From Vallitaleaceae bacterium (GTDB lineage Bacteria > Bacillota > Clostridia > Lachnospirales > Vallitaleaceae): a stretch of DNA of 64,000 nt. Shown piece after piece: positions 8,751 through 62,494 of this stretch. The stretch lies in the NCBI GenBank assembly GCA_963677885.1, contig OY782500.1, forward strand, positions 5,098,136-5,162,135, in the 5' to 3' direction. Position numbers and translations under genes: made by a program. Under the pieces are notes generated by a model. The model saw only the letters and a program-made list of their open reading frames with translations, did no database searches and was not told the origin of the DNA. The number at the start of each line of letters is the position of its first letter. Position 1 is the first letter of the stretch.

Positions 8751-8763
8751 GGTTTTTTGGGTT

Positions 8764-8912
8764 GGGGGTCCTGGCTTGCCCGGGTCCAGGGCACTTGGCA
8801 CCCGGTCGGTGATTCCCAAATTTGGACATATCCCCATTATGGAGATATGACCATACCAAATTCGTGAGTCAAGGCCCAGATGCCAAGACCCAGGACCCAG
8901 ACAAGCCAGTCG
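8764..8912 (-). repeat. GC-rich hairpin repeat element, copy 5 (minus orientation)
   Basis: The minus strand reads GGCCTTGACTCACGAATTTGG ... CCAAATTTGGGAATCACCGACCGGGTGCC, matching the core of the other copies. Terminal arms GTCCTGGCTTGCCCGGGTCC... and ...GGACCCAGACAAGCCAGTC are mutually complementary. Local GC is far above the flanking sequence. Confidence 0.5.
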
Positions 8913-9130
8913 CAACCAGAAACTCTAAAAGAATAGAGTGAAAAGACTGCGATCCGAGACGCTAGGCTCTTCGAGCCGGCGCGACGACCCTCGTTGAGGG
9001 GAGATACGGTTATGATCTTCAAGTTGATATAAGAACTTCTGATTTATCTAATTTCCGTCGGAAGTTCCCAGCTGGCCGGTTCGGAACGAACCCACAGCGT
9101 CAACAACATATTCCATTCCTGTCTTATGGC

Positions 9131-9275
9131 GACAGGGGGCTGGTCCTTAGGACCTGGTGGTTGGGCTTTGATTCACGAATGTGGTTAGTAGACTTCCCAA
9201 TTAAACAATCTCTCAGCCACATTTGGGTATCACTCGCCCGACCAATAGGTGCCTAAGGACCGGCTCCCGTCCCTC
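9131..9275 (+). repeat. GC-rich hairpin repeat element, copy 1
   Basis: Core GGGCTTTGATTCACGAATGTGG ... CCACATTTGGGTATCACTCGCCCG. Terminal stem GGGGGCTGGTCCTTAGGACC pairs with GGTGCCTAAGGACCGGCTCCCGTCCC. Confidence 0.6.
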
Positions 9276-9379
9276 ATATCACAAGAACGGAAAAAGTTAT
9301 TGACAATGATTCTTCATTAGAATATAATTAGGTTAAGCCTAACTAATTAATTTAAGTTAGAAAAAGTAACAGGCAGGAA

Positions 9380-9988: not shown

Positions 9989-12358
9989 ATGAAAGATCAA
10001 GCATTACATGTTATACCGATTATAGATACCATTATTTTACCATCAACAGATACAAAGCTGTCTGTTGATGAACAGCTGGGACATGAGCTGAAAAACCAAA
10101 TAGATAATGCATCCGGATATGCCTTGGCATTTACCCTTAAAGAAGGAGTAGATAAAAAGCATGTAACAGAGGATAGTTTTTATAAAATTGGCACCTTGGT
10201 TAAACTCAACCGAATTGAACCATCCTCAAACGGATATTTAGTCTATGCCAGAGGTTATGAGCGGGTTGAGGCAGAAGATATCATTATCGCCGATACCAAT
10301 ACCTATGCTACCTATCATGGAGCGCCTGAAGTCGATGACCTTCATGAAGACGGTCGGGCCCAAATGATAGCCTACATCAAAGAAATCATACATGAGATTG
10401 GTGATCACTTTAAGGGAAATGAAGACTATATGAAGCTTCTTGACAGGCAAAAAGAAATCAATAGCCTGATTGGTCATTTGCTTCCTTTCCTTCAGGCCAG
10501 TCTAGATCAAAAATACGAATTGATTCGACATGCGTCCATGAAACAAAGAGGCCTTCTTTTCATCGAGTATCTTGGTAAACAACAGGAGTCTATTGAGTTA
10601 CAGGTTGAAATGGCCAAAAAATATTCCAAGAAGAATAACCAGAACTATCGAGAAGCCATGCTTCGTGAGCAGCTGAAAGCTATCCAGCAGGAGCTAGGTC
10701 AAGATGAAGATGATCCTGGAAGTACAGAAGCCTATCGTAAACGGATTGATGAATCCTTTATGTCAGAGGAAGCAAGAAAGGCGGCAAACAGAGAGCTGAA
10801 AAAATTGGAAACTTCAGGCGGTAATAATTCTGAAGCCCATATTATTCGTAACTATTTAGATTTGATGCTGGACTTACCTTGGAGTTCAGAGATAAAGGAA
10901 GTGGATATTAATGAAGCTAAGAGAGTTCTTGATCGTCATCACTATGGTATGGATAAGGTTAAGGAAAGAATTATACAACATCTAGCCGTCATGAAAATGA
11001 AAAAGAACAAGCAGGGGTCTATCCTTCTTCTTGTTGGCCCTCCGGGAACAGGCAAAACATCCTTAGGGAAAAGTATTGCTGAAGCCCTGGGACGTGAATA
11101 TATCCGAGCCAGCCTTGGAGGTGTCCGTGATGAAGCTGAGATTAGGGGACACAGAAGAACCTATATTGGAGCCCTTCCTGGTAGGATTATTCAAGGCATG
11201 AAAAAAGCGGGAACCAACAACCCTGTTTTTGTCCTTGATGAGATAGATAAACTTTCTATGAGTCACAACGGAGATCCGGCAAGTGCCCTTCTTGAAGTCC
11301 TTGACCCGGAACAAAACAATACTTTTGCAGATCATTACCTGGAAGTTCCTTATGACTTATCGGATGTTTTGTTTGTGGCAACAGCCAACTCCATGAACTC
11401 CATTCCACAGCCCCTCCTTGACCGTTTGGAAGTTATTCAGATATCCTCTTATACAAATCTCGAGAAGCTCAATATTGCCAGGGAACACTTGGTGAAAAAT
11501 TCTATGAAAGACCACGGTCTTGAAGGAGATGAAATTGTATTTGAAGATGAGGCGATCTCTGGTATAATTGACAGATATACAAGAGAAGCCGGAGTCAGAG
11601 GCTTACGCAAACAAATCGATAAAGTGGTTCGGTCAGTCATTGAAAAGATTGTTACCGATGAGGTTAAAGGGCTTTTCACGGTGACTGATGACAACCTTCA
11701 TGATCTGCTTGGAAACAGAATGGCTAGACACAATGAAATCCGTGAATCAGCTTCTCCGGGAGTTGTTACAGGTCTTGCCTGGACACCGGTTGGTGGAGAT
11801 ATTCTTTTCATAGAAGGAACCTTTATGGCCGGATCCGGCAACATGATGTTGACTGGTCAGTTAGGGGATGTTATGAAGGAATCTGCAAGGATTTCCATGA
11901 GCTTGGTGAAATCCCGTCTGTCCGACCAATTGAAAGTTATCGATTTTGGTAAAAATGATATTCATATACATGTTCCTAGTGGAGCGACGCCAAAAGACGG
12001 TCCATCTGCAGGTATTACCATGCTAACCGCCATGGCCTCCCTGGCAACTGGTAAAAAGGTTAAAACTGACCTTGCTATGACTGGTGAAGTAACTCTCAGT
12101 GGTCACGTCTTACCGGTAGGTGGTATCAAGGAAAAAGTCTTGGCAGCCCACCGTGCAGGAATTAAAGAAATCATTATGCCAAAAGAGAATGAAAAAGACA
12201 TTCAGGATGTACCTGAAGATGCAAGGAATGCCATCAACTTCCATTTTGTAGAGCAGATTGAGGAGGTTTTGGAACTTGCCTTGGACATTCATATCAAGAC
12301 TCCGGAAGAACTCTTTATCATTTCAGGACCTGAAAAAAATATTGGCTTCAAGATGTAA
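9989..12358 (+). CDS. lon: ATP-dependent Lon protease (endopeptidase La)
   Basis: 789 aa with LON N-domain, AAA+ Walker A (GPPGTGKTS) and the S16 catalytic Ser motif (DGPSAGITM). Confidence 0.95.
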
Positions 12359-13666: not shown

Positions 13667-13719
13667 TGGTGTTTGGAGAGTTATGTAGTATGAATTAAGA
13701 AGGAATATGTTTATATAGG

Positions 13720-13866
13720 GACGGCAGGCAGGCTGCATATCCTATCTCGCGGGCAGGTGCCCCACGAATGCGATGAGATCATCTCTAAAGAGATGATGTT
13801 TGACGCATTCGTGACTCAAAAGCCCACGAGACAGGACAAGCAACCCACCTGCCTGTTGTTATATAA
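13720..13866 (-). repeat. GC-rich hairpin repeat element, copy 4 (minus orientation, diverged)
   Basis: The minus strand reads GGGCTTTTGAGTCACGAATGCG ... CATTCGTGGGGCACCTGCCCG, matching the family core. It holds an internal palindrome, CACGAATGCG...CGCATTCGTG. It lies about 50 nt after the hom stop. Confidence 0.5.
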
Positions 13867-14021
13867 AGATATATTTATTAAAAGCATAAGTCATAAAAGA
13901 TAAATACCACCAACCCGAGCTGTGGCTTTGTTGGGCGGGGAGGGTATTGGTTTGATGTTGGTTGAATCGCTGGGTAATATTTAGAAGTATGATTTGTAGG
14001 TAAATATCTGAATAACAAAAA

Positions 14022-14052
14022 AAGCCTCCAGAGCGAGGAGGCTTCAAGACAT
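14022..14052 (-). terminator. intrinsic terminator (mainly for the minus-strand EAL-HDOD transcript; A-run on the other side makes it possibly bidirectional)
   Basis: GCCTCCAGAGCGAGGAGGC hairpin with a T-run on the minus strand and an A-run on the plus strand. Confidence 0.6.
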
Positions 14053-14085
14053 ACTTATTGAATTTTATCTGAGAAACCGGGCGTA

Positions 14086-14257
14086 GACTCCGATTTGTAA
14101 TACACAAGGTGTGGGCTTAGGGTCTTGCTGGCTGGGCTTTGATGCACGAATGTGTTAAGGTTTATCTCATTTGAGTAAACATGAGTCACATTTGGGCATC
14201 ACTCGCCCTGCCAGTAAGAGCCCTAGGCCCGCACCTGTCCCCATTACAAATCGGAAT
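14086..14257 (+). repeat. GC-rich hairpin repeat element, copy 2; its 3' arm overlaps the stop codon of the EAL-HDOD gene
   Basis: Core GGGCTTTGATGCACGAATGTG ... CATTTGGGCATCACTCGCCCTG. Stem GGTGTGGGCTTAGGGTCTTGCTGG pairs with CCAGTAAGAGCCCTAGGCCCGCACC. An outer perfect 11-bp inverted repeat, CGATTTGTAAT/ATTACAAATCG, contains the TAA (revcomp TTA at 14244-14246) of the convergent gene. Confidence 0.6.
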
Positions 14258-22988: not shown

Positions 22989-23029
22989 TATGTTTGGGTT
23001 ATTTATGGGAGTATCAAATTAGAGTTGAA

Positions 23030-23093
23030 ATATAGAGCTAGTCACTCCGCCCTTGCGCACTTCGTGAAGCCGGTCTGAGCAACTAGCTCTATA
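23030..23093. repeat. perfect 13-bp inverted repeat (ATATAGAGCTAGT / ACTAGCTCTATAT) flanking a 38-bp GC-rich spacer
   Basis: Read directly from the sequence. It sits at the boundary between clpE and the low-GC islet. Confidence 0.5.
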
Positions 23094-23407
23094 TTTCTGC
23101 TTAACTGGATATGCATAAAATTATAAATTATTGATAAGTTTACATATATAGAGTTAGAAGAAGTGATTTCTAGATATAGTATATAAGTTTTACAAACATA
23201 TACCTTACACAACCAAGAAGCTTAGCAAAAACCATAGAATAATCATAAACGCCTTAGAAATGCAAGATCCTTCAAGGTTCACAATTTTCTATAACTTCCT
23301 GACACTTCTCAGAACTCCATAGGTCTCTCCAGAAATCTTCAAAACGCTAAAATCTCCCACTTCCATTCATGACCCCCAACACAAACCACCCACTACATCA
23401 ATATATG

Positions 23408-23600
23408 ACACAAGGTGTAGGCCTAGGGTCTTGCTGGTTGGGCTTTGGCTCACGAATGCCTCTTGCATTGCTGTATCATTGTTCCTAACCCAGGCATTTG
23501 GGATCCACTCGCCCGACTAGTAAGAGCCCTAGGCCTTGCACCTGTCCGTTATACATTGAATGTCACCCTAGGCCTGCACCTGTCCGTTATAAATCGATTG
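23408..23600 (+). repeat. GC-rich hairpin repeat element, copy 3 (with a 26-bp internal direct duplication of its 3' arm)
   Basis: Core GGGCTTTGGCTCACGAATGCC ... CATTTGGGATCCACTCGCCCGACTAGTAAGAGCCCTAGGCC. The 5' arm ACACAAGGTGTAGGCCTAGGGTCTTGCTGG is nearly identical to copy 2. The 3' arm CTAGGCC(T)TGCACCTGTCCGTTATA occurs twice (23531-23556 and 23567-23592). It ends 8 nt before the stop of the convergent gene. Confidence 0.6.
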
Positions 23601-44028: not shown

Positions 44029-44155
44029 AATATCTCCTATAAAGCCAACATATTAGAATGACTAATTAATAAAATAAGTAATATTAATTTTACTTCTTAA
44101 TAATAACATGGTAACCTTTGTAAGTAAATAACGCACACACACTTTGGAGGCAAAT

Positions 44156-47100
44156 ATGTCGATAAAACGAATTTTTGTTGAGAAAAAAGAAGGATTCAAC
44201 GTAGAAGCCAAAGGGCTTTTAGAGGATCTCAAGAGTCACCTAAACTTACCTAACCTGGAAAATGTACGTATTCTTCACCGATATGATACGGATCACCTTG
44301 ACCAGGATACATATGAAGCAGCTATCCATACGGTTTATTCAGAACCACCAGCAGACAGAGTGTTTGAAGAGTCTATCGATTTAGATACCAGTCAAGTGGT
44401 TTTTGGAGTCGAATATCTTCCCGGCCAGTATGACCAAAGAGCTGACTCCCTGGTTCAATGTATCAAGCTTATTAACAACGATGCAAAACCTGTAGTTGCA
44501 GTAGCTAAAATCTTTGTACTTACAGGTCAGCTGTCAGACAAAGATATTGACAGCATCAAGCACTACTGTATCAACCCTGTTGATTCAAGAGAAGCTTTCC
44601 TTGAAAAACCTGAAACCCTTGAATTGGAATTTGAAATTCCTAAGGAAGTGGAGACTGTAGAAGGTTTTATCGACCTTGATGAGGAAGGTGTCGTATCCCT
44701 TTGGAAGCAATTAGGTCTTGCTATGACAGAAAAAGACCTTTTACATACACAGAAATACTTTATAGAAGTAGAGAAGAGAAACCCTACAATCACTGAAATC
44801 AGAGCCTTGGATACCTATTGGTCCGATCACTGTCGTCATACTACCTTCCTGACACGCCTGGAAAACATTTCCTTCGACGAAGCTGGCTCTGTTCAACCAA
44901 TCAAGGAAACTTACGAATCTTATCTTAAAGACAGACAAGACGTATACGGCGACCGAATCGGTGACAAACCGGTATGTCTGATGGATATTGCCCTTATGGC
45001 AATGAAAAAAATGCGTCAAAATGGACATTTGGAAGACCTGGAAGTTTCTGATGAAATCAATGCATGTTCAATTATTGTACCAGTTGATATAGATGGTGAG
45101 GACCAGGAGTGGTTGGTCATGTTCAAGAATGAAACTCATAACCATCCAACTGAAATAGAACCTTTTGGTGGTGCTGCCACCTGTCTGGGTGGTGCAATTA
45201 GAGACCCATTATCAGGACGTTCTTATGTATACCAGGCTATGCGTGTTACAGGTGCAGCTGACCCTCGTCTTCCAATTGAAGAGACAATGGCCGGCAAATT
45301 GCCTCAAAGAAAGATTGTAACAGAATCAGCCCACGGCTATTCATCATACGGTAACCAAATTGGTCTTGCTACAGGTCTTGTTAGAGAAATATATCACCCT
45401 AACTACGTAGCTAAGCGCATGGAAATCGGTGCAGTTATTGCAGCGGCTCCCCGTGAAAATGTTATCCGTGAAACCTCAGACCCAGGTGACTACATTATCC
45501 TACTTGGTGGTAGAACCGGTCGTGACGGTTGTGGTGGAGCAACAGGATCCTCTAAAGAACATACAGAAGAGTCTATCCACACCTGTGGTGCAGAAGTTCA
45601 AAAGGGTAATCCACCAACAGAAAGAAAAATTCAACGTTTATTCCGTAATGATAAAGTCAGCAAAATGATCAAAAAATGTAACGACTTCGGTGCCGGTGGT
45701 GTATCGGTTGCAATCGGTGAGCTGGCAGATGGTTTAATTATTGAACTGGATAAAGTGCCTAAGAAATACGACGGACTTGACGGTACAGAACTGGCTATCA
45801 GTGAATCTCAGGAAAGAATGGCAGTTGTCGTTAATCCTAAAGATGCCAAGGACTTCATCCAAGCTGTAGAACTTGAAAACCTTGAAGCTGTTCATGTGGC
45901 TACGGTTACAGAGGAAAAACGTTTAGTCATGAACTGGAACGGCAAATCCATTGTCAATATTAGAAGAGATTTCCTGGATACCAACGGTGCTCCAACAGAT
46001 ATGGATGCCCATGTCCTGGCACCTGAAACTCAAACTTATTTTGACCAGGAAGCTAAAGAAGTTGAGAAGATCTTGGAAAATGGATCTATCATGGATCTTT
46101 TCAAACGTTCACTCTCAGACTTAAACTCCTGTTCCCAAAGAGGGCTTGTTGAAATGTTTGACTCCTCAATCGGGGCCGGATCAGTCTTCATGCCTTTTGG
46201 TGGCAAGACTCAAAATTCACCAATGGAAGCAATGGTAGCGAAAATTCCTGTTCTTGGTGGCGAGACTTCAACAGGTACAGTCATGAGTCATGGCTTTAAT
46301 CCATACCTATCCAGTTGGAGCCCTTACCATGGATCCATATATGCAGTAATCGACTCCGTAGCAAAGGTTGTTGCTACCGGCGGACGATATGATACTATTC
46401 GATTTACCTTCCAGGAATACTTCAAACGTCTGGGCCAGGATGCTTCCAGATGGGGTGAGCCACTGGCGGCCCTTCTTGGTGCTTATTATATTCAGGATGC
46501 CCTTAACCTGCCGTCAATTGGTGGTAAAGACTCCATGAGTGGTACCTTCCATGATATTGATGTACCACCAACCTTAGTTTCTTTTGCCGTTAATGTTGTT
46601 GATGTTAACAAGACCATTTCATCTGAATTCAAGGGCTTTGACCATGATGTGGTCCTTATAGATCTTCCAAGGGATGAAAAGGAACTTCCTGACCTTACAG
46701 CCTTAAAAGAAAACTATACCTGGATTCACGAAAATATTCAAAATGGAAACATTCTTTCTGCCAACAGCCTACCTCAGTTTGGTATAGGAGAAGCTGTTTC
46801 AAAAATGGCCTTTGGTAATGAAATCGGCTTCACCTTTGAAGATTTGGATCCAAAAGATGTGTTTACATCATCCTATGGTTCTATACTGGTAGAGCTTGCC
46901 AAACCAGCTAAAGACCTGGATTTACCAAAAACTGCTAGACTTGTTGGTACAACAACCAAGGATAGATCTATTCGATATAAAGACGCAGTCATTGATACTG
47001 ACCTTGCCTTGTCATGGTGGGAAGAACCTCTTGAAGATATCTTCCCAACCCGTACAAAAGAAAATGGGGCAACCATTGATCAATTAACGATTTCAGATAA

Positions 47101-47926
47101 GGTTTACAGCCTTAAAGACAGAATTGCCAAACCAACAGTTTTTGTTCCAGTTTTCCCAGGAACCAACTGTGAATACGATACACGATTAGCCTTTGAAAAA
47201 GCAGGAGCCAATGTTAAAGAAGTAATCTTCAGAAACATGACACCTGAAATGTCCCTCCAATCCGTTGAAGCCTTTACCCAGGGAATCAAAGAATCACAAA
47301 TGATTATGATTCCAGGTGGTTTTTCAGCCGGTGATGAACCGGACGGTTCAGGTAAATTCATCGCAACCGTATTTAGAAATCCAGCTATATCAGAAGCGGT
47401 TATGGATATGCTTAAGGAGAGAGACGGTTTAATGCTGGGTATCTGTAACGGATTCCAAGCCCTTATCAAGCTTGGATTGGTTCCTTACGGTGAGATCCGC
47501 AACATGTCAGACCAGGCACCAACCCTGACATTTAACACCATTGGACGTCACATTTCAAGAATGGCCACAACCAAGATCATGAGTAATCAGTCACCATGGC
47601 TTGCAGGGGTCACACCAGGAGATATTCATCATATACCATTATCACATGGTGAAGGACGCTTTGTTGCAGATGAAGCTACCATTAAAGACCTGTTTGCAAA
47701 AGGTCAGGTCATGACAACCTATGTCGATGCTTTCGGTAAACCAAGCATGAATGTTATGGATAATCCTAACGGTTCCATGTACGCCATCGAAGGTATCATG
47801 AGCCCAGACGGTAGAGTACTCGGTAAAATGGGACACTCTGAGCGTATCGGTAAAAACGTTGCCAAAAACATCTACGGCAACCAGGACCAAAAATTATTTG
47901 AGTCCGGCGTAAAATACTTTAAATAG
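44156..47926 (+). CDS. purL: phosphoribosylformylglycinamidine synthase, single-chain large form (PurS-PurL-PurQ fused)
   Basis: About 1256 aa with the FGAM synthase N-domain, AIRS/AIRS_C repeats and a C-terminal class-I glutamine amidotransferase (GICNGFQAL). ATG 44156 with RBS GGAGG 5 nt upstream. Confidence 0.95.
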   Translation: MSIKRIFVEKKEGFNVEAKGLLEDLKSHLNLPNLENVRILHRYDTDHLDQDTYEAAIHTVYSEPPADRVFEESIDLDTSQVVFGVEYLPGQYDQRADSLVQCIKLINNDAKPVVAVAKIFVLTGQLSDKDIDSIKHYCINPVDSREAFLEKPETLELEFEIPKEVETVEGFIDLDEEGVVSLWKQLGLAMTEKDLLHTQKYFIEVEKRNPTITEIRALDTYWSDHCRHTTFLTRLENISFDEAGSVQPIKETYESYLKDRQDVYGDRIGDKPVCLMDIALMAMKKMRQNGHLEDLEVSDEINACSIIVPVDIDGEDQEWLVMFKNETHNHPTEIEPFGGAATCLGGAIRDPLSGRSYVYQAMRVTGAADPRLPIEETMAGKLPQRKIVTESAHGYSSYGNQIGLATGLVREIYHPNYVAKRMEIGAVIAAAPRENVIRETSDPGDYIILLGGRTGRDGCGGATGSSKEHTEESIHTCGAEVQKGNPPTERKIQRLFRNDKVSKMIKKCNDFGAGGVSVAIGELADGLIIELDKVPKKYDGLDGTELAISESQERMAVVVNPKDAKDFIQAVELENLEAVHVATVTEEKRLVMNWNGKSIVNIRRDFLDTNGAPTDMDAHVLAPETQTYFDQEAKEVEKILENGSIMDLFKRSLSDLNSCSQRGLVEMFDSSIGAGSVFMPFGGKTQNSPMEAMVAKIPVLGGETSTGTVMSHGFNPYLSSWSPYHGSIYAVIDSVAKVVATGGRYDTIRFTFQEYFKRLGQDASRWGEPLAALLGAYYIQDALNLPSIGGKDSMSGTFHDIDVPPTLVSFAVNVVDVNKTISSEFKGFDHDVVLIDLPRDEKELPDLTALKENYTWIHENIQNGNILSANSLPQFGIGEAVSKMAFGNEIGFTFEDLDPKDVFTSSYGSILVELAKPAKDLDLPKTARLVGTTTKDRSIRYKDAVIDTDLALSWWEEPLEDIFPTRTKENGATIDQLTISDKVYSLKDRIAKPTVFVPVFPGTNCEYDTRLAFEKAGANVKEVIFRNMTPEMSLQSVEAFTQGIKESQMIMIPGGFSAGDEPDGSGKFIATVFRNPAISEAVMDMLKERDGLMLGICNGFQALIKLGLVPYGEIRNMSDQAPTLTFNTIGRHISRMATTKIMSNQSPWLAGVTPGDIHHIPLSHGEGRFVADEATIKDLFAKGQVMTTYVDAFGKPSMNVMDNPNGSMYAIEGIMSPDGRVLGKMGHSERIGKNVAKNIYGNQDQKLFESGVKYFK

Positions 47927-47997: not shown

Positions 47998-48015
47998 GTC
48001 TGAAAATATTTTTTT

Positions 48016-48441
48016 GGGGGTCAAGTTACCGACTGTGGCCAGGCTGGCGCCTTAGGATGTCTTTCCGGTCGCGGTCAAGGCATTAAGTGGATCTAAGGGT
48101 CAGAGAATTGCCAAAAAGTTATAAGTTGGGCAAATATTGGGTGGGGGTCAAGTTACCGACTGTGACCAGGCTGGCGCCTTGGGATGTCTTTCCGGTCGCG
48201 GTCAAGGCATTAAGTGGATCTAAGGTTCAGAGAATTGCCAAAAAGTTATAACTTGAACAAATCTTGGGTTATGTAATTGAGAAGGGAAGGTTGTGAGCAA
48301 GTGTTCAAGTTGTTAAGGAAATTTCTGCAAGCAGAAATTGGATTATATTTTTGACAAAGCTCTGATCCTAAGATCCACTAAATACATGCCCAAAGCCCGG
48401 CAAGACACCCCAAGGCGCCAACCCGTCCACAGTCGCTAACT
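48016..48441. repeat. junction element R1: two tandem 127-bp units of arm A, the conserved core in reverse orientation, then an inverted A arm
   Basis: Unit A, GGGGGTCAAGTTACCGACTGTGGCCAGGCTGGCGCCTTAGGATGTCTTTCCGGTCGCGGTCAAGGCATTAAGTGGATCTAAGG(G/T)TCAGAGAATTGCCAAAAAGTTATAA, sits at 48016-48142 and 48143-48268. The core holds the palindrome TTTCTGCAAGCAGAAAT (48321-48337). The reverse-complement A arm is at 48363-48441. Confidence 0.7.
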
Positions 48442-48503
48442 TTCGGTTTCGCATTATGTCTTGACGGTTGGTCGTGTGTGTGGGAGTATCCGTATTAATT
48501 ATG

Positions 48504-48533
48504 TTGACAATAATCAAATGATAGATATACAAT
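48504..48533 (+). promoter_or_regulatory. sigma-A promoter for the first GNAT gene (TTGACA, 17-nt spacer, ATACAAT)
   Basis: Read from the sequence; about 25 nt upstream of the ATG. Confidence 0.45.
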
Positions 48534-48558
48534 TTTTTTGGGGAAGGAGCGAGATGTC

Positions 48559-49026
48559 ATGAGTGAGAATTTTTCTATTAGAGAAGATGATTTGACGAAC
48601 GATAGGGTTGTTGAGCTTGTTTTAGATCATAAGAAAGCTATGTTGGCTATTAGTCCCAAGGAGAGTGTCCATGCTTTGGATTTGGAGGAGCTTCGTAGTT
48701 CTGATATAAGTTTTTGGACCATTTGGGATGGCGATGCCTTGATGGGATGTGGAGATTTGAAGGCTTTAAATGAGCTGGAAGGTGAGATTAAGTCTATGAG
48801 AACCCATGTCTCCTATTTGAGACAGGGTATTGCAGGGAAAATGCTTGACCATATTATTAGGAATGCAAAGGCAAGAGGCTATAAAAGACTGTATTTGGAA
48901 ACGGGTTCCAGGGATGAATTTATTCCTGCTCACAAGTTATACGAGAAGTACGGCTTTTCTAATTGCGGTCCTTTCGCTGACTATGTAGAAGATGACCATT
49001 CCCGTTTTATGTATCTAGAACTCTAA
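48559..49026 (+). CDS. GNAT-family N-acetyltransferase
   Basis: About 155 aa with a GNAT acetyl-CoA motif region (LRQGIAGKMLDHIIRNAKARGYKRLYLET). Start chosen at ATG 48559 (RBS GGAAGGAG). Confidence 0.8.
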   Translation: MSENFSIREDDLTNDRVVELVLDHKKAMLAISPKESVHALDLEELRSSDISFWTIWDGDALMGCGDLKALNELEGEIKSMRTHVSYLRQGIAGKMLDHIIRNAKARGYKRLYLETGSRDEFIPAHKLYEKYGFSNCGPFADYVEDDHSRFMYLEL

Positions 49027-49040
49027 AAATAATATAGTAG

Positions 49041-49338
49041 GAGCAAGTTACCGGTCGTGGCTAGGCTGACGCCTTGAGGTGTCTTGCTGGGCTTTGGGCA
49101 TGTGTTTAGTGGACCTTGGATTCAGAGCTTTGTAAAAAATATATTCATATATCTGCTTGCAGAAATTACCCTGACAACTTGGGCACTTGCTCTCAGCAAC
49201 CTGACCTTAATAACTTACCCAAGATTTGCCCAAGTTATAACTTTTTTACAATTCTCTGAACCCTAGAGCCACTTAATACCTTGACCGCGACCAGAAAGAT
49301 ACCTCAAGGCGTCAGCCTTGCCATGACAGGTAACTGTC
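49041..49338. repeat. junction element R2: A arm, conserved core of about 120 bp, inverted full A arm (long hairpin, stem about 85 bp)
   Basis: The 5' arm is CAAGTTACCGGTCGTGGCTAGGCTGACGCCTTGAGGTGTCTTGCTGGGC...TTAGTGGACCTTGGATTCAGAGC. The core is ATATCTGCTTGCAGAAATTACC...CAACTTGGGCACTTGCTC...TTACCCAAGATTTGCCCAAGTTATAACTTTTTT. The 3' arm is the reverse complement of unit A. Confidence 0.7.
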
Positions 49339-49379
49339 AACCACAAAATGACCAAAGACTAATGTAACCAGGAGAGAAA

Positions 49380-49892
49380 ATGCAATTATATAAACCAAAA
49401 TTAGAGGAACTAAACTACAGAATGAATCTCATGTCAGATCCTCAAACCATGTCCTACAACAAGGACCTGGATTTAGACTTTGAAGGGTATCATAAGGATA
49501 CCGGCTGCATCGACTTCCCAAGAGATACGTGGAAGACTTGGTATGATTATTGGATGGAAGCTGAACCCACAAGATTTTATGCCTATTTGAAGGTCAAGGA
49601 TCAACTAGTAGGAGAAGTAGCGCTCAGATATGTAGAGGCTCAAGGTGCCCATATGATCAACATCATTATAGACTCCAGACACAGAGGAAAAGGCTATGGC
49701 AAAGAAGGCCTCCAACTATTACTTAAAGTTGCCTTCAAAGATCTTAACCTAGAAAAAGTCATCGACGACTTCCCCATTACCAGAACTACCTCTATAAACC
49801 TCTTTCAGTCACTAGGATTTCATTCCCAAATCAAAGACAATCTCATCACCTTTTCACTAACCAAATCCCAATACCATGCCTTGAATATTTAG
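49380..49892 (+). CDS. GNAT-family N-acetyltransferase (RimJ/RimL-like)
   Basis: 170 aa. IIIDSRHRGKGYGKEGLQLL matches the GNAT motif A pattern. Confidence 0.8.
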   Translation: MQLYKPKLEELNYRMNLMSDPQTMSYNKDLDLDFEGYHKDTGCIDFPRDTWKTWYDYWMEAEPTRFYAYLKVKDQLVGEVALRYVEAQGAHMINIIIDSRHRGKGYGKEGLQLLLKVAFKDLNLEKVIDDFPITRTTSINLFQSLGFHSQIKDNLITFSLTKSQYHALNI

Positions 49893-49987
49893 TATTAAAT
49901 ATAATCCAATAGGCTATAGTCTGTATCCAAAACAAAAAGCCAATAACTAAAAGCCAACAACGTAAGGAATTTCCCATAACGAAACCG

Positions 49988-50340
49988 AAAGCTCAGGGAC
50001 AGAGACGGCCAGCCATGCCTTGTCACTTGGGTTTTGCACGCTATTTTAGTGAGACTTAGGTTGACGAAGGTGTCAAAAATATATTCAAGTTTCTGCTTGC
50101 AGAAACTACCTCAGCAACTTGGGCACTTGCTCACAGCTATCTGACTTAAATAATTTACCCAAGATTTGCCCAAGTTATAACTTTTTGGCACTTTCATCAA
50201 CCCTAGTCTCACTTAATAGATGTGCACTCCCAGGAGATAAGGCATGGCTGTGCGTCTCTGTCCTTGAGCTTGACAATCTTAATAGATGTGCACTCCCAGG
50301 AGACAAGGCTTGACTGGCCGTCTCTGTCCTTGAGCTTGAC
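49988..50340. repeat. junction element R3: B arm, the same conserved core, inverted B arm duplicated in tandem
   Basis: The 5' arm AGCTCAGGGACAGAGACGGCCAGCCATGCCTTGTC... The core is nearly identical to R2 (AAGTTTCTGCTTGCAGAAACTACC...CAACTTGGGCACTTGCTCACAGC...TTACCCAAGATTTGCCCAAGTTATAACTTTTTGGCA). The 3' arm AATAGATGTGCACTCCCAGGAGA(T/C)AAGGC...GTCTCTGTCCTTGAGCTTGAC occurs twice (50207-50273 and 50274-50340). Confidence 0.7.
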
Positions 50341-50414
50341 ACCTCTCCTTTATTGTCAAACTCCTCCAATCTAGAGTATAATATAAGAGCTATAGAGAAG
50401 AACAGGAGGTAACC

Positions 50415-51113
50415 ATGACATTAGAAATAAAACCCACAGGATTCTTAACCTCTACAGGACTTAAATGGATAGCTATTATTACCATGGTCATTGACCATAT
50501 AGGAGCAGTTCTTTACCCCGTAAACCTTTACCCGGATATGGTCATCTTACGCATTATCGGTAGAATAGCCTTTCCAATATTTGCCTTTTTAATTGTAGAA
50601 GGCTATAGATATACTAGAGACGTACAAAAGTATGGTATAAGACTTTTAATATTTGCCTTACTATCAGAAGTGCCCTTTGATCTGGCTTTTAAGAAGACCT
50701 TAGTCAGTATGGATCACCAAAATGTCTTTTTTACTTTGGCCTTAGGGTTACTGGCCCTATATATTTATGATTATCTTAAGGAGCGGAATGGAGTTTTAGC
50801 TGGTGGAGCCATATTCCTTATAGCTGCCAGTGCTGAAATTCTTAAGACAGATTATGGGATGCTGGGTGTCCTTTTGATTGTTCTTATGTATGCTTTTTAT
50901 GATAAACGGTTTATAGCTGTTTGGATTTTAGTGATTAATGTGTTTTTTGTTATGATTGGCGCCAGTCAGATTCAGTTATTTGCTATTGTGTCCATTATAT
51001 TTATCTGGAATTACAATGGAAAACCTGGAAGACGGATGCGATACTTATTTTATATTATTTATCCGGCCCACATTCTGACCTTATACTTTATATGGCGGTT
51101 GTGGAGGATGTAA
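50415..51113 (+). CDS. traX: TraX-family integral membrane protein (putative acyl/acetyltransferase)
   Basis: 232-aa polytopic membrane protein. The N-terminal LKWIAIITMVIDHIGAVLYP is the TraX-family hallmark. Confidence 0.7.
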   Translation: MTLEIKPTGFLTSTGLKWIAIITMVIDHIGAVLYPVNLYPDMVILRIIGRIAFPIFAFLIVEGYRYTRDVQKYGIRLLIFALLSEVPFDLAFKKTLVSMDHQNVFFTLALGLLALYIYDYLKERNGVLAGGAIFLIAASAEILKTDYGMLGVLLIVLMYAFYDKRFIAVWILVINVFFVMIGASQIQLFAIVSIIFIWNYNGKPGRRMRYLFYIIYPAHILTLYFIWRLWRM

Positions 51114-51162
51114 GCTTTTATGGACATAAGAACCAAGTAGACTTGAACGAGGGAGTAATGAG

Positions 51163-51672
51163 ATGGACTTAGTTAAAGCAGTTGGTAAGGACTATATATG
51201 GCTATTAGACCTCCATACCAGATGTACAAGGGATTTAGACCAGCAAGGGATCTATCAGTGGACGCCGGAATATCCGGGACCTAAAACCATTAAGGCGGCT
51301 ATTGCCAGTGGCTGTCAATGGTTGCTTAAGCATAATGGAGAGTTTGTCGGAGGCGTTGTTCTGAATGAAGTTCAGGACCCTGAGTGGTTAACCATAAACT
51401 GGACCTTTCAAGGAAAAATTCTTGTCATCCATGCTTTGGTCATTGATAAGGCCTTTCAGGGGAAGGGACTTGGGCAGATGGCCTTAGAGGCCATAGAAGC
51501 CTATGCCGGGGAAGAGGGTTATATGGGTATACGAATGGATGTTTTCTCGGAAAATCCAGGTGCCATATATCTTTACAAGAAAAATGGATATACTTTCCTG
51601 GGAGATGTGTTTTTTCAGTCAAAACCTAAAGGCCATGAACGCTATATATGTCTCGAGAAAAAGTTTGCATAG
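51163..51672 (+). CDS. GNAT-family N-acetyltransferase
   Basis: 169 aa. ALVIDKAFQGKGLGQMALEAIEAYAGEEGY is a GNAT motif A. Confidence 0.8.
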   Translation: MDLVKAVGKDYIWLLDLHTRCTRDLDQQGIYQWTPEYPGPKTIKAAIASGCQWLLKHNGEFVGGVVLNEVQDPEWLTINWTFQGKILVIHALVIDKAFQGKGLGQMALEAIEAYAGEEGYMGIRMDVFSENPGAIYLYKKNGYTFLGDVFFQSKPKGHERYICLEKKFA

Positions 51673-51769
51673 GCAGGGATGACTTTGCAAGTCAATATTG
51701 CAAAAAAGGACTAAATATGTTAGAATTGGCCTAATCGAAAAAGGCTAGGATAAGAACCAGTAAATACAT

Positions 51770-52006
51770 GGGATTTTAAGAGAGAAGATGGGTGGTGTAA
51801 ATCTTCATGAAAGTGTATTGAACCTCTCTTTGAGCTTTGAACCGAACGTATAAACCAGTAGGCTTCAACGGATGTCCACCGTTATCAGGAAAGGATATAA
51901 CCGGTCTTTGACCCGGAAAGTATCTATGAGTGCAGATTTGTTCTGAATTTAGGTGGTACCACGGATTAACCATTCGCCCTAAGCTATATAAGCTTAGGGC
52001 TTTTTT
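51770..52006 (+). promoter_or_regulatory. probable T-box leader (variant T-box sequence) upstream of proS
   Basis: AGAGAGA at about 51775. T-box-like AATTTAGGTGGTACCACGG at 51945-51963, with a UGGU bulge candidate for the tRNA ACCA end. Terminator GCCCTAAGCTATATAAGCTTAGGGC plus TTTTTT at 51976-52006. Another 195 nt of hairpin-rich leader lies before the proS start. Confidence 0.5.
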
Positions 52007-52201
52007 GAGCTATTGGAAAGTTCTGATTATAGCAAAATGTTCAGAAGCCAACATTTTGCGTTAAAGAAACTTTCCTGCCGCAACAATTTGGCTGGTTGTA
52101 ACCTTCGGTTACTGCTCGCCTATGCAACCTAGCTGTGCAAAACGAGGCGAAGCCTCTTTGTTCAGCTTTAGGAATGTCCTATAGGACCTAGGAGGAAGAA
52201 G

Positions 52202-53917
52202 ATGAAATTAGTAAATTTAATTGGAGACAGATTTAAGGAAAGACCATCAGACTGTGTTATTGACAGCCACGCTCTAATGATTAAAGGTGGTTACATGAAA
52301 AATGTGGCTAACGGAATTTTTTCAAGCAACCCACCATTAAAGCGGATTACAAGTAAAATCGAAAACATCATTCGTGAGGAAATGAACCGGATTGAAGGAC
52401 AGGAAGTCCTTTTCCCTGTTGTTTTACCTGGTACTTTATGGGAAGAATCAGGCAGATATGAAAGCGTTGGCAGTGAGCTTTTGAGATTTAGGGACAGAAC
52501 AGGTTCCCCAATGGTTCTTGGTATGACCCATGAAGAAGCTGCAGTTCACTTGGTTAGGGATTATGCCAATACATACACCAAGTATCCATTTATGATATAT
52601 CAGATCCAGACTAAGTTCAGGGATGAAGCTAGACCTCGTGCAGGTCTTATCCGTGTTCGGGAGTTTACCATGAAAGATGCTTATTCTTTCCATACGTCAC
52701 AGGAAGATTTGGAAGTTTACTATGACAGATGTCTGGAAGCCTACAACCGTATTTTTGCCCGTGCTGGTGTTCCAGAAGTCATTACCGTAAAATCCGATTC
52801 AGGTATGATGGGTGGTAGTGTGGCCCATGAGTTTATGCTGTTAACCCCAATTGGTGAAGATTCCCTGGCTATTTGTACAGAGTGTGATTATTCTGCCAAT
52901 ATGGAAGCTGCTGAGAATATTGTCAACAATGAAGGTGCTTTTGAAAAAGAAGATTTGACTCTGGTTCATACCCCTAATGCTTCAACCATAGAAGACGTTA
53001 TGTCCTTCTTAAAGAGAGATGTTAAACAGTCCTGTAAGGCTGTTGTTTATCAAAAGAAAAGTGATGATTCCTTTGTCATCGTCTTCACCCGTGGTGATAT
53101 GGATGTGAACGAAGTCAAGCTCAACAACTATCTTGGTGAGGAAGTCTATCCAGCAGTAGTCACAGAAGAATCAGGTATTGTTGCGGGATTTATTGGTGCT
53201 TATGAGTTTGAAGGCAAGGCTCAGCTTCTTTTTGACACCTCTATTAAGGGTCTTGATTCCATGGTGGTTGGCGCTAATAAACTAGACTATCACTATACCG
53301 GATTCAATATGGAAAGAGACTATGGTCAGGTTGAATATGCAGACCTATCCAAGATTCAGGAAGGTTCCATATGTCCACAATGTGGTAAGGAAACCATCAG
53401 CTTAAGCCGTGGTATTGAAGTTGGTAATATTTTCCAATTGGGAACCAAATATACCAAAACCATGGAAATGACCTATGTGGATTCAGAAGGTAATGCCCAG
53501 TACCCAATTATGGGATGCTACGGTATTGGTGTGGGTCGTCTGGCGGCTTCCGTTGCTGAAGCCAAACATGATGAATATGGTCCAATCTGGCCAATGTCAA
53601 TTGCTCCATGGCAAGTACATGTTTGTTGCCTAAGAATAGATGACCAGGAGGCAAAAGACAGGGCAGATGCGATTTACACTGATTTACTTGATGCAGGTGT
53701 TGAGGTTATTTATGATGACAGAAATGTAAGACCCGGCGTTATGTTTTCTGATGCCGACCTTTTAGGCGTTCCACTTCGTGTCATTGTTTCTCCTAGAAAC
53801 CTTAAGGAATCTGTTGTTGAAATCGTATCCAGGGATAAATCCATCCAGAAAAAAGTTGGGTTCGATGATGTAACATCAGAAATCAAAAACTTGATTGCAG
53901 AGATGTTGGCATACTGA
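52202..53917 (+). CDS. proS: proline--tRNA ligase (bacterial type with INS editing domain)
   Basis: 571 aa with class II aaRS motifs, an insertion/editing domain and a C-terminal anticodon-binding domain. Confidence 0.95.
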   Translation: MKLVNLIGDRFKERPSDCVIDSHALMIKGGYMKNVANGIFSSNPPLKRITSKIENIIREEMNRIEGQEVLFPVVLPGTLWEESGRYESVGSELLRFRDRTGSPMVLGMTHEEAAVHLVRDYANTYTKYPFMIYQIQTKFRDEARPRAGLIRVREFTMKDAYSFHTSQEDLEVYYDRCLEAYNRIFARAGVPEVITVKSDSGMMGGSVAHEFMLLTPIGEDSLAICTECDYSANMEAAENIVNNEGAFEKEDLTLVHTPNASTIEDVMSFLKRDVKQSCKAVVYQKKSDDSFVIVFTRGDMDVNEVKLNNYLGEEVYPAVVTEESGIVAGFIGAYEFEGKAQLLFDTSIKGLDSMVVGANKLDYHYTGFNMERDYGQVEYADLSKIQEGSICPQCGKETISLSRGIEVGNIFQLGTKYTKTMEMTYVDSEGNAQYPIMGCYGIGVGRLAASVAEAKHDEYGPIWPMSIAPWQVHVCCLRIDDQEAKDRADAIYTDLLDAGVEVIYDDRNVRPGVMFSDADLLGVPLRVIVSPRNLKESVVEIVSRDKSIQKKVGFDDVTSEIKNLIAEMLAY

Positions 53918-54399: not shown

Positions 54400-54400
54400 A

Positions 54401-54450
54401 ATTCACGAGACTAGTCACTGGCTAGTCTCGTGATTGTATAATGACGGTGG
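54401..54450 (+). terminator. intrinsic terminator
   Basis: AATTCACGAGACTAGTCACTGGCTAGTCTCGTGATT palindrome, then GTATAATGACGGTGGATG TTTTTTTT. Confidence 0.55.
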
Positions 54451-54510
54451 ATGTTTTTTTTGATATAATACTTTTAGTTGAATATACTTTAAAACCAAAA
54501 GGAGAAAAGT

Positions 54511-60734: not shown

Positions 60735-60995
60735 TAATAGAAGAGTAGGTGGTTTTGAGGAAGATAAAGCCGGCTCTTATATGAATAAGAATTATATAAT
60801 TACGTTGATAAAGAAGAGTAATTCGTCATTGTCTTGACCAGTGATTCCGGGCTAGTGTGAACCGGGACAGGAAACCGAATGAAGGCGCTTTGGAGTAATC
60901 TTAATTAAGCGGATACGGATGTATCAATTAGGGTGGAACCGCGGATAGAGTAATCTTTTCGTCCCTTGTCTGGGAGAATTGGATTACTTTTTTTG
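60735..60995 (+). promoter_or_regulatory. glycine-specific T-box riboswitch leader of glyQS
   Basis: T-box sequence AATTAGGGTGGAACCGCGG at 60926-60944. It overlaps a terminator (AGTAATC...GATTACT plus TTTTTTT) ending at about 60995. The classic glyQS context is established knowledge. Confidence 0.85.
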
Positions 60996-61105
60996 TACCA
61001 AATTTTAGACTTATGTATAAGCGCTTATGTCTAGTAAGGAAGTGATCTTCTCCAATCCACACGTTGGATGAACACTATAAAGGCATAAAAGAAAGGAAGA
61101 TGAAC

Positions 61106-62494
61106 ATGGAAAAAACAATGGAAAAAATTGTTGCTTTAGCTAAAGCAAGAGGATTTGTTTATCCTGGATCAGAGATTTACGGTGGTCTGGCTAACACTTG
61201 GGATTACGGTCCATTAGGTGTTGAACTAAAAAACAACGTTAAGAAGGCCTGGTGGCAAAAGTTTATTAAGGAGAGCCCATATAATGTCGGTGTTGACTGT
61301 GCCCTTCTCATGAACCCACAGGTTTGGGTGGCTTCAGGTCATGTTGGAGGATTCAACGATCCACTTATGGATTGTAAGTCCTGTAAAGAGCGTTTTAGAG
61401 CAGACCAGCTAATTGAAGAATATATGAAGGACAATAATATAGAAGTGTCCGATCCTGTAGATTCATGGACCAATGAGCAAATGAAGGAATACATTGATGA
61501 AAAGGGTATTGACTGTCCATCTTGTGGCGCTCATGACTTTACGGATATCCGTCAGTTCAACTTAATGTTCAAAACTTTCCAGGGTGTTACAGAAGATGCT
61601 AAGAACACGATTTACCTTCGTCCTGAAACTGCACAGGGTATCTTTGTTAACTTCAAGAACGTTCAAAGAACATCACGTAAAAAAATTCCATTTGGTATTG
61701 GTCAGATCGGTAAGTCCTTCCGTAATGAGATTACACCAGGTAACTTTACATTCAGAACCCGTGAATTTGAACAAATGGAATTGGAATTTTTCTGTAAGCC
61801 GGGCACCGACCTTGAATGGTTTGCCTACTGGAAAGATTACTGTGTAAACTGGTTACAGACTCTTGGTATGAAAGATGATGTGATGCGTGTTCGTGATCAC
61901 AGTGCTGAAGAATTATCCCATTACTCCAATGCAACTTCTGATATTGAATACCTTTTCCCATTTGGATGGGGCGAACTTTGGGGTATTGCCGATAGAACTG
62001 ATTTTGACTTAATGGCCCATCAAGAGCACTCAGGTCAAGACATGGCTTACTTTGATGACCAGGAAAAAGAAAAATATGTTCCTTATTGTATTGAACCATC
62101 ATTGGGTGCAGACCGTGTAACTTTGGCATTCCTTTGTGAAGCATACGATGAAGAGGAACTTGAAGGTGGCGATGTAAGAAACGTATTACGTTTCCATCCG
62201 GCTCTTGCACCGGTTAAGGTTGGTGTTCTTCCTCTTTCCAAGAAGCTTAATGATCAGGCTACTGATCTTTTTGCAAAACTTTCCAAAACTTACAACTGTG
62301 AATTTGATGACAGAGGTTCCATTGGTAAGCGTTACCGTCGTCAAGATGAGATTGGTACACCTTTCTGTATCACTTATGATTTTGATACTCTTGAAGATCA
62401 GGCAGTAACAGTACGTGACCGTGATACTATGGAACAGGAAAGAATCAAGATCGAAGATTTAAAAGCATATTTTGAAGAAAAATTTGATTTCTAG
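61106..62494 (+). CDS. glyQS: glycine--tRNA ligase (single-chain alpha2 type, GlyQS)
   Basis: N-terminus [36 protein letters not shown] is typical of this type. About 462 aa from ATG 61106 (RBS AAAGGAAG). Confidence 0.9.

Follow-up and report, generated by a model that had tools for sequence, protein, structure and literature searches.

Our results suggest that the spacer between purL and proS of a Vallitaleaceae bacterium carries a new, lineage-restricted family of very large structured palindromic intergenic repeats, of the kind of ERIC, bcr1 and the miniature inverted-repeat transposable elements (MITEs), a reading to which we give about an even chance. The locus lies in a 64-kb stretch of contig OY782500.1, hereafter the window, which covers it with 48 kb upstream and 12 kb downstream. 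The family has three members here, R1, R2 and R3, which precede the genes GNAT1, GNAT2 and traX, respectively, and which bound and subdivide a 2.36-kb insertion carrying two genes. An earlier note on this DNA, made from its letters alone, had described three related elements at these places, and our repeat and alignment analysis confirmed them.

R1, R2 and R3 are large modular hairpins

Each element is an imperfect hairpin of ~290 nt, which reaches 365-430 nt in R1 and R3, where one arm is duplicated. As had been noticed, R1 is reverse-complemented relative to R2 and R3, and the inverted-repeat pairs confirm this. R2 folds as one long hairpin with an RNA minimum free energy of -137 kcal/mol (z = -12.6), which was equalled by 0 of 100 shuffles. 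In every element the arms are ~100 nt long, with 80-82 of ~101 positions paired, and they enclose a centre of ~92 nt that is unpaired or weakly paired. This centre, together with ~41-58 nt of each arm, makes up a block of ~190 nt that is common to the three elements (68-90% identical). Note that these measurements correct those first given, which were arms of about 85 bp and a core of about 120 bp.

The centre holds the 16-bp palindrome TTTCTGCTTGCAGAAA and a 10-bp internal hairpin (AACTTGGGCA/TGCCCAAGTT, with TTGAACA/TGTTCAA as its R1 version), and both features had been seen in the letters. In the whole window the palindrome is present only at 48322, 49150 (the R2 copy, with one mismatch) and 50090; the number expected by chance is 0.15, and the observed count was reached in 0 of 100 shuffles. 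The core hairpin reads CTTGGGCA/TGCCCAAG in R2 and R3 and CTTGAACA/TGTTCAAG in R1, where GG>AA is matched by CC>TT, a double compensated change.

Type-A arms, those of R1 and R2, share 78-90% identity, with ~80% in the outer stem. In contrast, the outer arms of R3 (type B) are 25-32% identical to those of type A, which is the random level, and yet the arms remain complementary within each element, as the earlier note had claimed. The elements end in AAGTTACC...GGTAACTT (type A) or in AAGCTCAGG...CCTTGAGCTT (type B). Thus, the build of the elements is modular: it consists of a conserved apical module of ~190 nt, an outer stem of ~45-60 bp that is free in sequence but paired, and short conserved single-stranded ends. 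These ends are a 12-nt 5' extension, CGAAACCGAAAG, common to R1 and R3, and the 3' motif CTTGAC, which lies just outside the stem in R1 and R3 and is also found at both their internal duplication junctions; R2 has CTGTCAAC in place of it.

The tandem duplication of one arm, which had also been described, involves the 3' (sense-right) arm and part of the core in R1 and the outer 3' arm in R3 (Table 1). Five of the six differences between the tandem units of R3 fall inside one 12-nt patch. The open reading frames (ORFs) inside the elements are of chance origin, with translations that lack real homologues. Other copies were also sought via these spurious ORFs, and this returned repetitive, unrelated proteins only.

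The fold is probably selected on one strand

When R1 and R2 were compared, 18 changes were counted in each arm. In nine cases the same pair is hit, compared to 3.2 expected (permutation p = 0.00085), and pairing is preserved in eight of these nine. Moreover, the inner arms of the elements carry six to seven double compensated pairs. This covariation, together with the random-level identity of the outer arms, supports the earlier proposal that the structure of the stem is conserved more than its sequence.

Folding of each strand, a check that the note had proposed, favoured the same strand of the element in all three copies. Under RNA as well as DNA parameters the sense strand gives the more stable fold, with a margin of 18 kcal/mol over the antisense strand in R1, and the folding energies obtained with DNA parameters range from -79 to -85 kcal/mol. 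On the common sense strand, G.U outnumber A.C appositions by 16 to 5. Since the favoured strand tracks the orientation of the element and not the chromosome strand, mutation bias does not explain this preference. R1 and R2 have kept the same asymmetric internal loops, and all three copies have an asymmetric centre, which argues against a simple arm-to-arm homogenisation. Taken together, these sequence comparisons indicate that the fold is probably under selection in single-stranded form, on one particular strand.

The elements bound an insertion between purL and traX

We compared the locus with its relatives. The closest fully syntenic relative (L008/L020) has a ProS that is 93% identical and ~80% nucleotide identity; a closer relative (L021, ~89-91% nucleotide identity) is represented by a Logan contig that starts inside the R3 orthologue. 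The named relatives of the host by ProS are Lachnospiraceae. In L008, purL, traX, GNAT3 and proS are contiguous, the purL-traX spacer measures 155 bp and the R elements are absent. Thus, only the block R1-GNAT1-R2-GNAT2-R3 is an indel, and traX and GNAT3 are resident genes. The earlier claim of a gene-gain hotspot, or cassette array, is therefore upheld as regards the change in gene content, since the block at 48006-50367 corresponds to 29 nt in L008. It does not extend to traX and GNAT3, which had been counted as a cassette but are syntenic, with the same promoter, in relatives without the R elements.

Both borders of the indel are R 3' ends in inverted orientation (GGGGGTCAAGTT ... GAGCTTGACACC). 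In the cross-strain comparison that the note had called for, the whole block is absent in L008, where the empty locus has no residual R site, and R3 is present in L021, whose contig ends inside the element. Insertion of R is thus polymorphic, R being absent at the orthologous site at ~80% nucleotide identity (L008) and present, as R3, at ~90% (L021). More distant relatives, with ProS 76-81% identical, have lost the purL-proS synteny, and for this reason there is no outgroup to decide between gain and loss.

In L021 the R3 orthologue lies in the same place, directly upstream of traX, from which it follows that R3 was inherited vertically in the clade formed by the window and L021. The first 86 nt of the L021 contig, which span the 3' part of the core, the inner arm and then 25 nt of type-B arm sequence, are identical to 50157-50242 at 85 of 86 positions. 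The next ~23 nt, in the outer stem, are ~50% identical (patch AATGCCCACCC...), and the last 10 nt (TGAGCTTGAC) are identical. As yardsticks for the same pair of genomes, identity is 0.74 (traX) and 0.66 (GNAT3) at 4-fold sites, ~0.8 in unconstrained spacers and 0.90 in the T-box region. Judged by these values, the apical module of R3 would be under strong sequence constraint, or would have been exchanged recently, with the outer stem left free.

The L021 copy of R3 has a single 3' arm unit, so the arm duplication is specific to the window lineage. In addition, the L021 contig breaks right after a 30-mer that is common to R2 and R3, which suggests that the L021 genome carries at least one further R copy. 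Note that the outer right arm of R3 contains a hypervariable patch of 12-23 nt (50243-50265 and 50309-50331; 87-109 in L021), and that the left arm of R3 resembles a mosaic of both right-arm versions.

Genes and promoters of the insertion

The coordinates of the features are collected in Table 1. GNAT1, GNAT2 and GNAT3 all fall outside the curated families of NCBIfam and are mutually dissimilar. With the source genome excluded, the best match of GNAT1 in the protein database is 65% identical. No closer GNAT1 orthologue came from the L021 sample, though that genome carries R3, and this negative evidence hints that the GNAT1 content differs between the source genome and L021. No hairpins were found beside the nearest GNAT1 homologues (65% and 61% identical), and no relatives of GNAT1 or GNAT2 were found in viral contigs. 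GNAT2 has a GC skew of -0.13 and a GC content at third codon positions of 0.45, the highest among the 14 plus-strand genes checked, in which the skew of the other genes is positive. This composition suggests a recent acquisition or an inversion.

The promoter scan, whose total was at chance frequency (12 sites found compared to 10.1 expected), gave a promoter-like site before GNAT1 and detected no promoter of its own for GNAT2. From GNAT1 to R3, the plus strand has no predicted terminator-like site.

Table 1. Features of the purL-proS locus and hairpins of the second family (window coordinates)
Feature	Position	Strand	Remarks
PurL	44144-47926		Pfam
2.36-kb indel R1-GNAT1-R2-GNAT2-R3	48006-50367		Between purL terminator and traX promoter; 29 nt in L008 (8296-8324)
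R1, type-A hairpin element	48016-48451	-	Stem from 48023; palindrome 48322-48337
R1 outer motif	48016-48025		GGGGGTCAAG
R1 tandem duplication, 3' (sense-right) arm and part of core	48015-48141 / 48142-48268	-	127 nt x2, 94% identical
R1 5' extension	48440-48451		CGAAACCGAAAG (plus strand CTTTCGGTTTCG)
GNAT1 promoter-like site	48504-48533	+	TTGACA-18-TACAAT, sigma-70, 11/12 matches
GNAT1, generic GNAT acetyltransferase, 155 aa	48559-49026	+	Pfam; inside 2.36-kb indel
R2, type-A hairpin element	49045-49342	+	Arms 49045-49145, 49236-49336; palindrome 49150-49165
GNAT2, generic GNAT acetyltransferase, 170 aa	49380-49892	+	Pfam; inside 2.36-kb indel
R3, type-B hairpin element	49980-50343	+	Palindrome 50090-50105
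R3 5' extension	49980-49991		CGAAACCGAAAG
R3 tandem duplication, outer 3' arm	50212-50275 / 50278-50341	+	64 nt x2, 92% identical
R3 3' motif	50332-50343		GAGCTTGACACC
traX promoter	50353-50382	+	TTGTCA-18-TATAAT; conserved in L008, identical in L021; resident
traX	50415-51113	+	Pfam; resident, syntenic in L008 and L021
GNAT3	51163-51672	+	Pfam; resident, syntenic in L008 and L021
proS T-box leader	51738-51984		Rfam scan
ProS	52202-53917		T-box-controlled
Second-family hairpins	8757-8915(-), 9099-9304(+), 13715-13860(-), 14082-14256(+), 23395-23560(+)		146-206 nt

A proposed family of structured intergenic repeats

Like the ERIC, bcr1 and Correia repeats, the R elements are non-coding imperfect intergenic palindromes that are found in multiple copies and in either orientation, vary in presence among related genomes, carry compensatory changes and are likely co-transcribed with their neighbours. 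Of these known repeats, bcr1 is transcribed and its fold is kept by compensatory changes, and ERIC acts on mRNA decay (PMC3184786). The R elements differ from them in size, being two to three times larger (290-430 nt compared to about 100-170 nt), in the clustering of the copies, as far as the 64 kb shows, and in having no target-site duplication. They also differ in their modular build, with a conserved apex and fully exchangeable outer stems, in that the termini are not the most conserved part, and in that an orthologous copy is more conserved than synonymous sites. As in MITEs, there are inverted arms of ~100 nt, a small non-coding body and an insertion polymorphism, here between L008 and L021; no cognate autonomous insertion sequence was found, as the ORFs scanned in the window include no transposase, plasmids and phages gave no DNA match, and the contig collections gave chance matches or none.

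A profile built from the three R copies gave no further match in the window. Outside it, a blastn search of the 2.36-kb block against plasmids and phages gave no match. Exact core patterns had seven single matches in genome contigs, which is the chance level (the one inspected was unrelated), and five matches in metagenome contigs, in coding DNA of unrelated organisms; they had none in viral contigs. In the literature on MITEs in Lachnospiraceae we found nothing relevant.

We propose that the R copies spread by duplication or by a transposition-like process in the clade of the window and L021, either at about the time when this clade and the L008 lineage parted or later. The copies and two unrelated GNAT genes would make up the 2.36-kb insertion that separates the purL terminator from the traX promoter; with inverted R ends at both borders, this insertion looks like a composite repeat-bounded unit. 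MITE-bounded composite units are known, for instance the integron mobilization units and the TIME-COMP elements. The locus resembles these in that R1, inverted with respect to R2 and R3, helps to bound a short gene-carrying segment that is an indel compared to a relative; it differs in having a third copy inside and no target-site duplication or cognate transposase found. The repeats may thus have promoted or accompanied gene gain via ordinary or illegitimate recombination, rather than via an integron-type site-specific exchange of cassettes.

As for their activity, the favoured strand may act as RNA. R2 and R3 would lie in the sense orientation inside or behind a GNAT1-GNAT2 transcription unit, and R2 is probably co-transcribed, since it lies between GNAT1 and the promoterless GNAT2. 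The lack of a GNAT2 promoter and of a predicted terminator-like site from GNAT1 to R3 makes RNA the likelier form for R2 and R3. In a transcript, the duplex of ~100 bp could serve in mRNA processing or stability, or as an insulating hairpin, for example as an RNase III substrate.

Several observations speak against this assignment to the ERIC, bcr1 and MITE kind. No target-site duplication was found in the flanks of R1, R2 or R3 or at the borders of the 2.36-kb block. The three copies lie within 2.4 kb and there is none elsewhere in the 64 kb, so that a dispersal of the MITE or repetitive extragenic palindrome type is not supported in the window. Co-transcription cannot explain R1, because its favoured strand is antisense to every nearby gene. 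Finally, the conservation of the R3 core (85/86) exceeds that of the T-box leader (0.90), which could be due to recent recombination or to some protein or RNA function that depends on the sequence.

If the assignment is correct, an unusually large and modular family would be added to the structured intergenic repeats, from the uncultured Lachnospiraceae, which are poorly studied. One orthologous R copy is conserved far above the neutral level, so that this copy is a candidate for a functional element, RNA or DNA, without an Rfam match. The locus would also provide a small, concrete case in which two unrelated acetyltransferase genes were gained between housekeeping genes with repeats at every junction, and it could help to find out whether gene gain is favoured by large hairpin repeats.

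Alternative explanations

The apical module that is 85/86 identical between genomes while an outer-stem patch is free, the outer stems that covary or are replaced, the G.U bias with its strand-specific fold, and the conserved internal hairpin with its compensated change would also fit stand-alone non-coding RNA genes. In these, the ~190-nt apical module would be a mature trans-acting RNA released from a sequence-free processing stalk, as rRNAs are released from stalks by RNase III. We consider this unlikely. At the gathering threshold, Rfam found in the window only T-boxes; between 47900 and 50450, even E-values up to 10 gave one chance snoRNA-like match within GNAT1 and nothing else. No promoter-like site precedes any of the R copies in the sense orientation, three diverged paralogues (68-90% identical) at one locus are unusual for a trans-acting RNA, and tandem arm duplications are more typical of repeats. 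Such duplications, like the block substitutions in the outer stems, resemble replication or repair accidents at palindromes, and the copies are clustered and show no visible target-site duplication. All this could be expected of neutral foldback DNA, that is, of functionless, decaying palindromes that arose by inverted duplication and were kept complementary by arm-to-arm gene conversion. The identity of the core and inner arm, however, is 85/86 compared to ~70% at neutral sites, which strongly disfavours this explanation. Asymmetric loops were kept between R1 and R2 and an asymmetric centre in all three copies, and the G.U excess follows the orientation of the element, an asymmetry that conversion would erase. 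We regard the foldback explanation as decidedly improbable.

The resemblance to integron attC sites that the earlier note had pointed out extends to several features: the R elements are structured, strand-biased palindromic sites between small accessory genes, their structure is conserved more than their sequence, the cargo consists of acetyltransferases and no integrase is nearby. attC sites have short R and L boxes in the order R''-L''-variable terminal structure (20-100 nt)-L'-R' and conserved AAC...GTT end triplets, and arrays that lack a nearby integrase (attC site clusters devoid of integron-integrases, CALINs) are known (PMC4889954). On the defining features compared, membership of this class was nevertheless rejected for the R elements. 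With 290-430 nt, they are 2-4 times longer than attC; their ends do not show the AAC/GTT R-box pattern, since GTTACCG of type A misfits GTTRRRY and type B has no AAC/GTT; they are found in mixed orientation, with R1 inverted, where integron sites would share one; cassettes are mostly promoterless, as GNAT2 is, but GNAT1 carries an 11/12 promoter; and the empty locus of L008 has no residual site. Moreover, our Pfam scan, which took in the locus genes and, from the 64 kb, every non-nested ORF of 120 aa or more (but no nested overlapping ones), agreed with the note in finding no IntI, and it found no other tyrosine or serine recombinase and no transposase. The host belongs to the Firmicutes, in which integrons are, to our knowledge, essentially unknown. 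A more general version of the idea, in which the R elements would be folded single-strand recombination sites of a recombinase encoded elsewhere, and GNAT1 and GNAT2 mobile single-gene cassettes, we hold to be very unlikely. It would account for the position, between structured sites, of small single genes that are unrelated to one another and belong to a class often met in integron cassettes, for the strand-biased fold with outer stems conserved more in structure than in sequence, for an array that is an indel with respect to L008 and is bounded by R ends, and for a GNAT1 whose best match outside the source genome reaches 65%, with no closer orthologue from the L021 sample; the CALINs supply the precedent for the missing integrase. 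Nevertheless, the length, ends, orientation, GNAT1 promoter and clean empty site count against this version as well, as does the lack of a recombinase among the ORFs scanned. In addition, the nearest GNAT1 homologues have no adjacent hairpins and no chimeric A/B sites were seen. We give only a very slim chance to an integron-like but differently built gene-capture system of the Lachnospiraceae, in which a recombinase elsewhere would act on ~290-nt strand-specific hairpins whose apical recognition module is conserved and whose outer stems are free, GNAT1 and GNAT2 would be its mobile cassettes, and the arm duplications and the hypervariable patch would be recombination scars. Overall, the locus gives no evidence for integron-like cassette systems in Firmicutes. 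Another known system in which large stem-loops precede small genes is the leading region of plasmids and integrative and conjugative elements, with Frpo/ssi-type elements of ~300 nt upstream of small leading-region genes, for which a promoter screen used -75 kcal/mol (PMC12672017). The R elements are likewise strand-specific stem-loops of ~300 nt repeated upstream of small genes; their energy with DNA parameters passes this screen and a TraX-family gene adjoins them. If they were the remnant of such a region, each would be a single-stranded DNA promoter or a single-strand origin and would drive the small gene downstream upon entry of the DNA into a cell in single-stranded form. However, there is no -35/-10 pair in the stems of R1 or R2, and the left arm of R3 offers no more than a weak 9/12 match, within the frequency expected by chance (TTGTCA-16-TATTTT, 50020-50047). 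R1 has the wrong orientation for this, L008 has a syntenic, resident traX and no R elements, and no match was found in plasmid or phage DNA. The surroundings are core chromosome with housekeeping genes, and no relaxase, oriT or conjugation genes occur in the 64 kb. This makes a leading-region origin extremely unlikely.

A second hairpin family in the window

The earlier note had offered a further possibility, namely that the R elements are a second MITE-like family in the style of elements at 8.7-23.6 kb. As regards style this stands, since both are long, covarying, strand-biased hairpins, but homology between the two families was not shown. A MITE-like kind is likewise supported for the R elements, although not in what defines MITEs, as no target-site duplication was seen. 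The family at 8.7-23.6 kb is itself real, with nhmmer E-values of 1e-33 to 1e-44. Its mid-stem is conserved (TGGGCTTTGA.TCACGAATG / CATTTGGG.ATCACTCGCCCG), its loops are variable and its outer stems covary. Of 45 consensus pairs, 22 have changed in a compensatory way, and several G.U pairs were preserved. One strand is favoured by 14-20 kcal/mol in four of the five copies, and the other one (Hb) has no preference (equal with RNA parameters). None has an Rfam match.

These hairpins separate housekeeping operons (ilvB / marR-lon-hom / EAL, and clpB / next gene) and are absent from all three orthologous spacers of L020. Thus, this lineage shows a turnover of large, structured and strand-biased hairpin repeats that has no link to cassettes. 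In ~135 kb of related genomes no long inverted repeats (arms of at least 30 nt) were found; in the window, eight long inverted-repeat arm pairs, from five elements, were reported. The nhmmer profiles of the R elements and of the second family cross-match in neither direction. We also considered whether an R element could be a second-family hairpin with a nested insert, and rejected this, because the left-arm motif TGGGCTTTG reached a z of only 2-3.8 and the right arms gave nothing.

Neighbouring hairpins lie head-to-head, minus then plus, with their 3' ends outward, at all three places where they occur as neighbours (8757-9304, 13715-14256 and 48016-49342). Unrelated spacers (of 183 nt and 221 nt, and GNAT1) separate the partners, and the idea that the pairs are copies of one composite element was rejected, since these spacers are non-homologous. 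Hairpin 23395-23560 has its 3' outer arm partly repeated in tandem at 23564-23596; with R1 and R3, a 3' arm duplication thus recurs in three elements of two families. In the ilvB-marR spacer, the interior of the window sequence (8789-9267) is replaced by 5 nt in L020 (6868-6872), which keeps ~32 nt of the outer left edge of the first hairpin and ~17 nt of the outer right edge of the second. This remnant is either a deletion scar or an indication that the outermost stems are older than the elements. Downstream of clpB, an unrelated near-perfect hairpin of ~70 nt (AAATATAGAGCTAGT...ACTAGCTCTATATTT) is found at 23027-23095.

Other features of the neighbourhood

The window has three T-box leaders (533-755, 51738-51984 and 60796-60969), and the third precedes a class II aminoacyl-tRNA synthetase gene (61064-62494). 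Another small indel occurs in the same neighbourhood, without hairpin repeats: an EamA-family transporter gene lies between the DUF2007 and Bmp-family genes of L008 (12208-13062) and is absent from the window (54400-54510) and from L021.

In a more distant relative (L019, 5121-7829), two tandem IS91-family copies (Y2 transposase) lie directly upstream of proS. In L017 (2511-4491), the genome with the 61%-identical GNAT1 homologue, an IS91-family gene and a tyrosine recombinase adjoin a cluster of small GNAT genes. Finally, a 22-nt motif, GAAACTTTCCTGSCGCAACAAT, followed by ...GAGGCGRAGCCTCTTTGTTC, lies between the proS T-box terminator and the proS start (52066-52087). The same motif is present in L020 at a different locus, the hom-EAL spacer (11412-11433), and may be a third small mobile or regulatory repeat.

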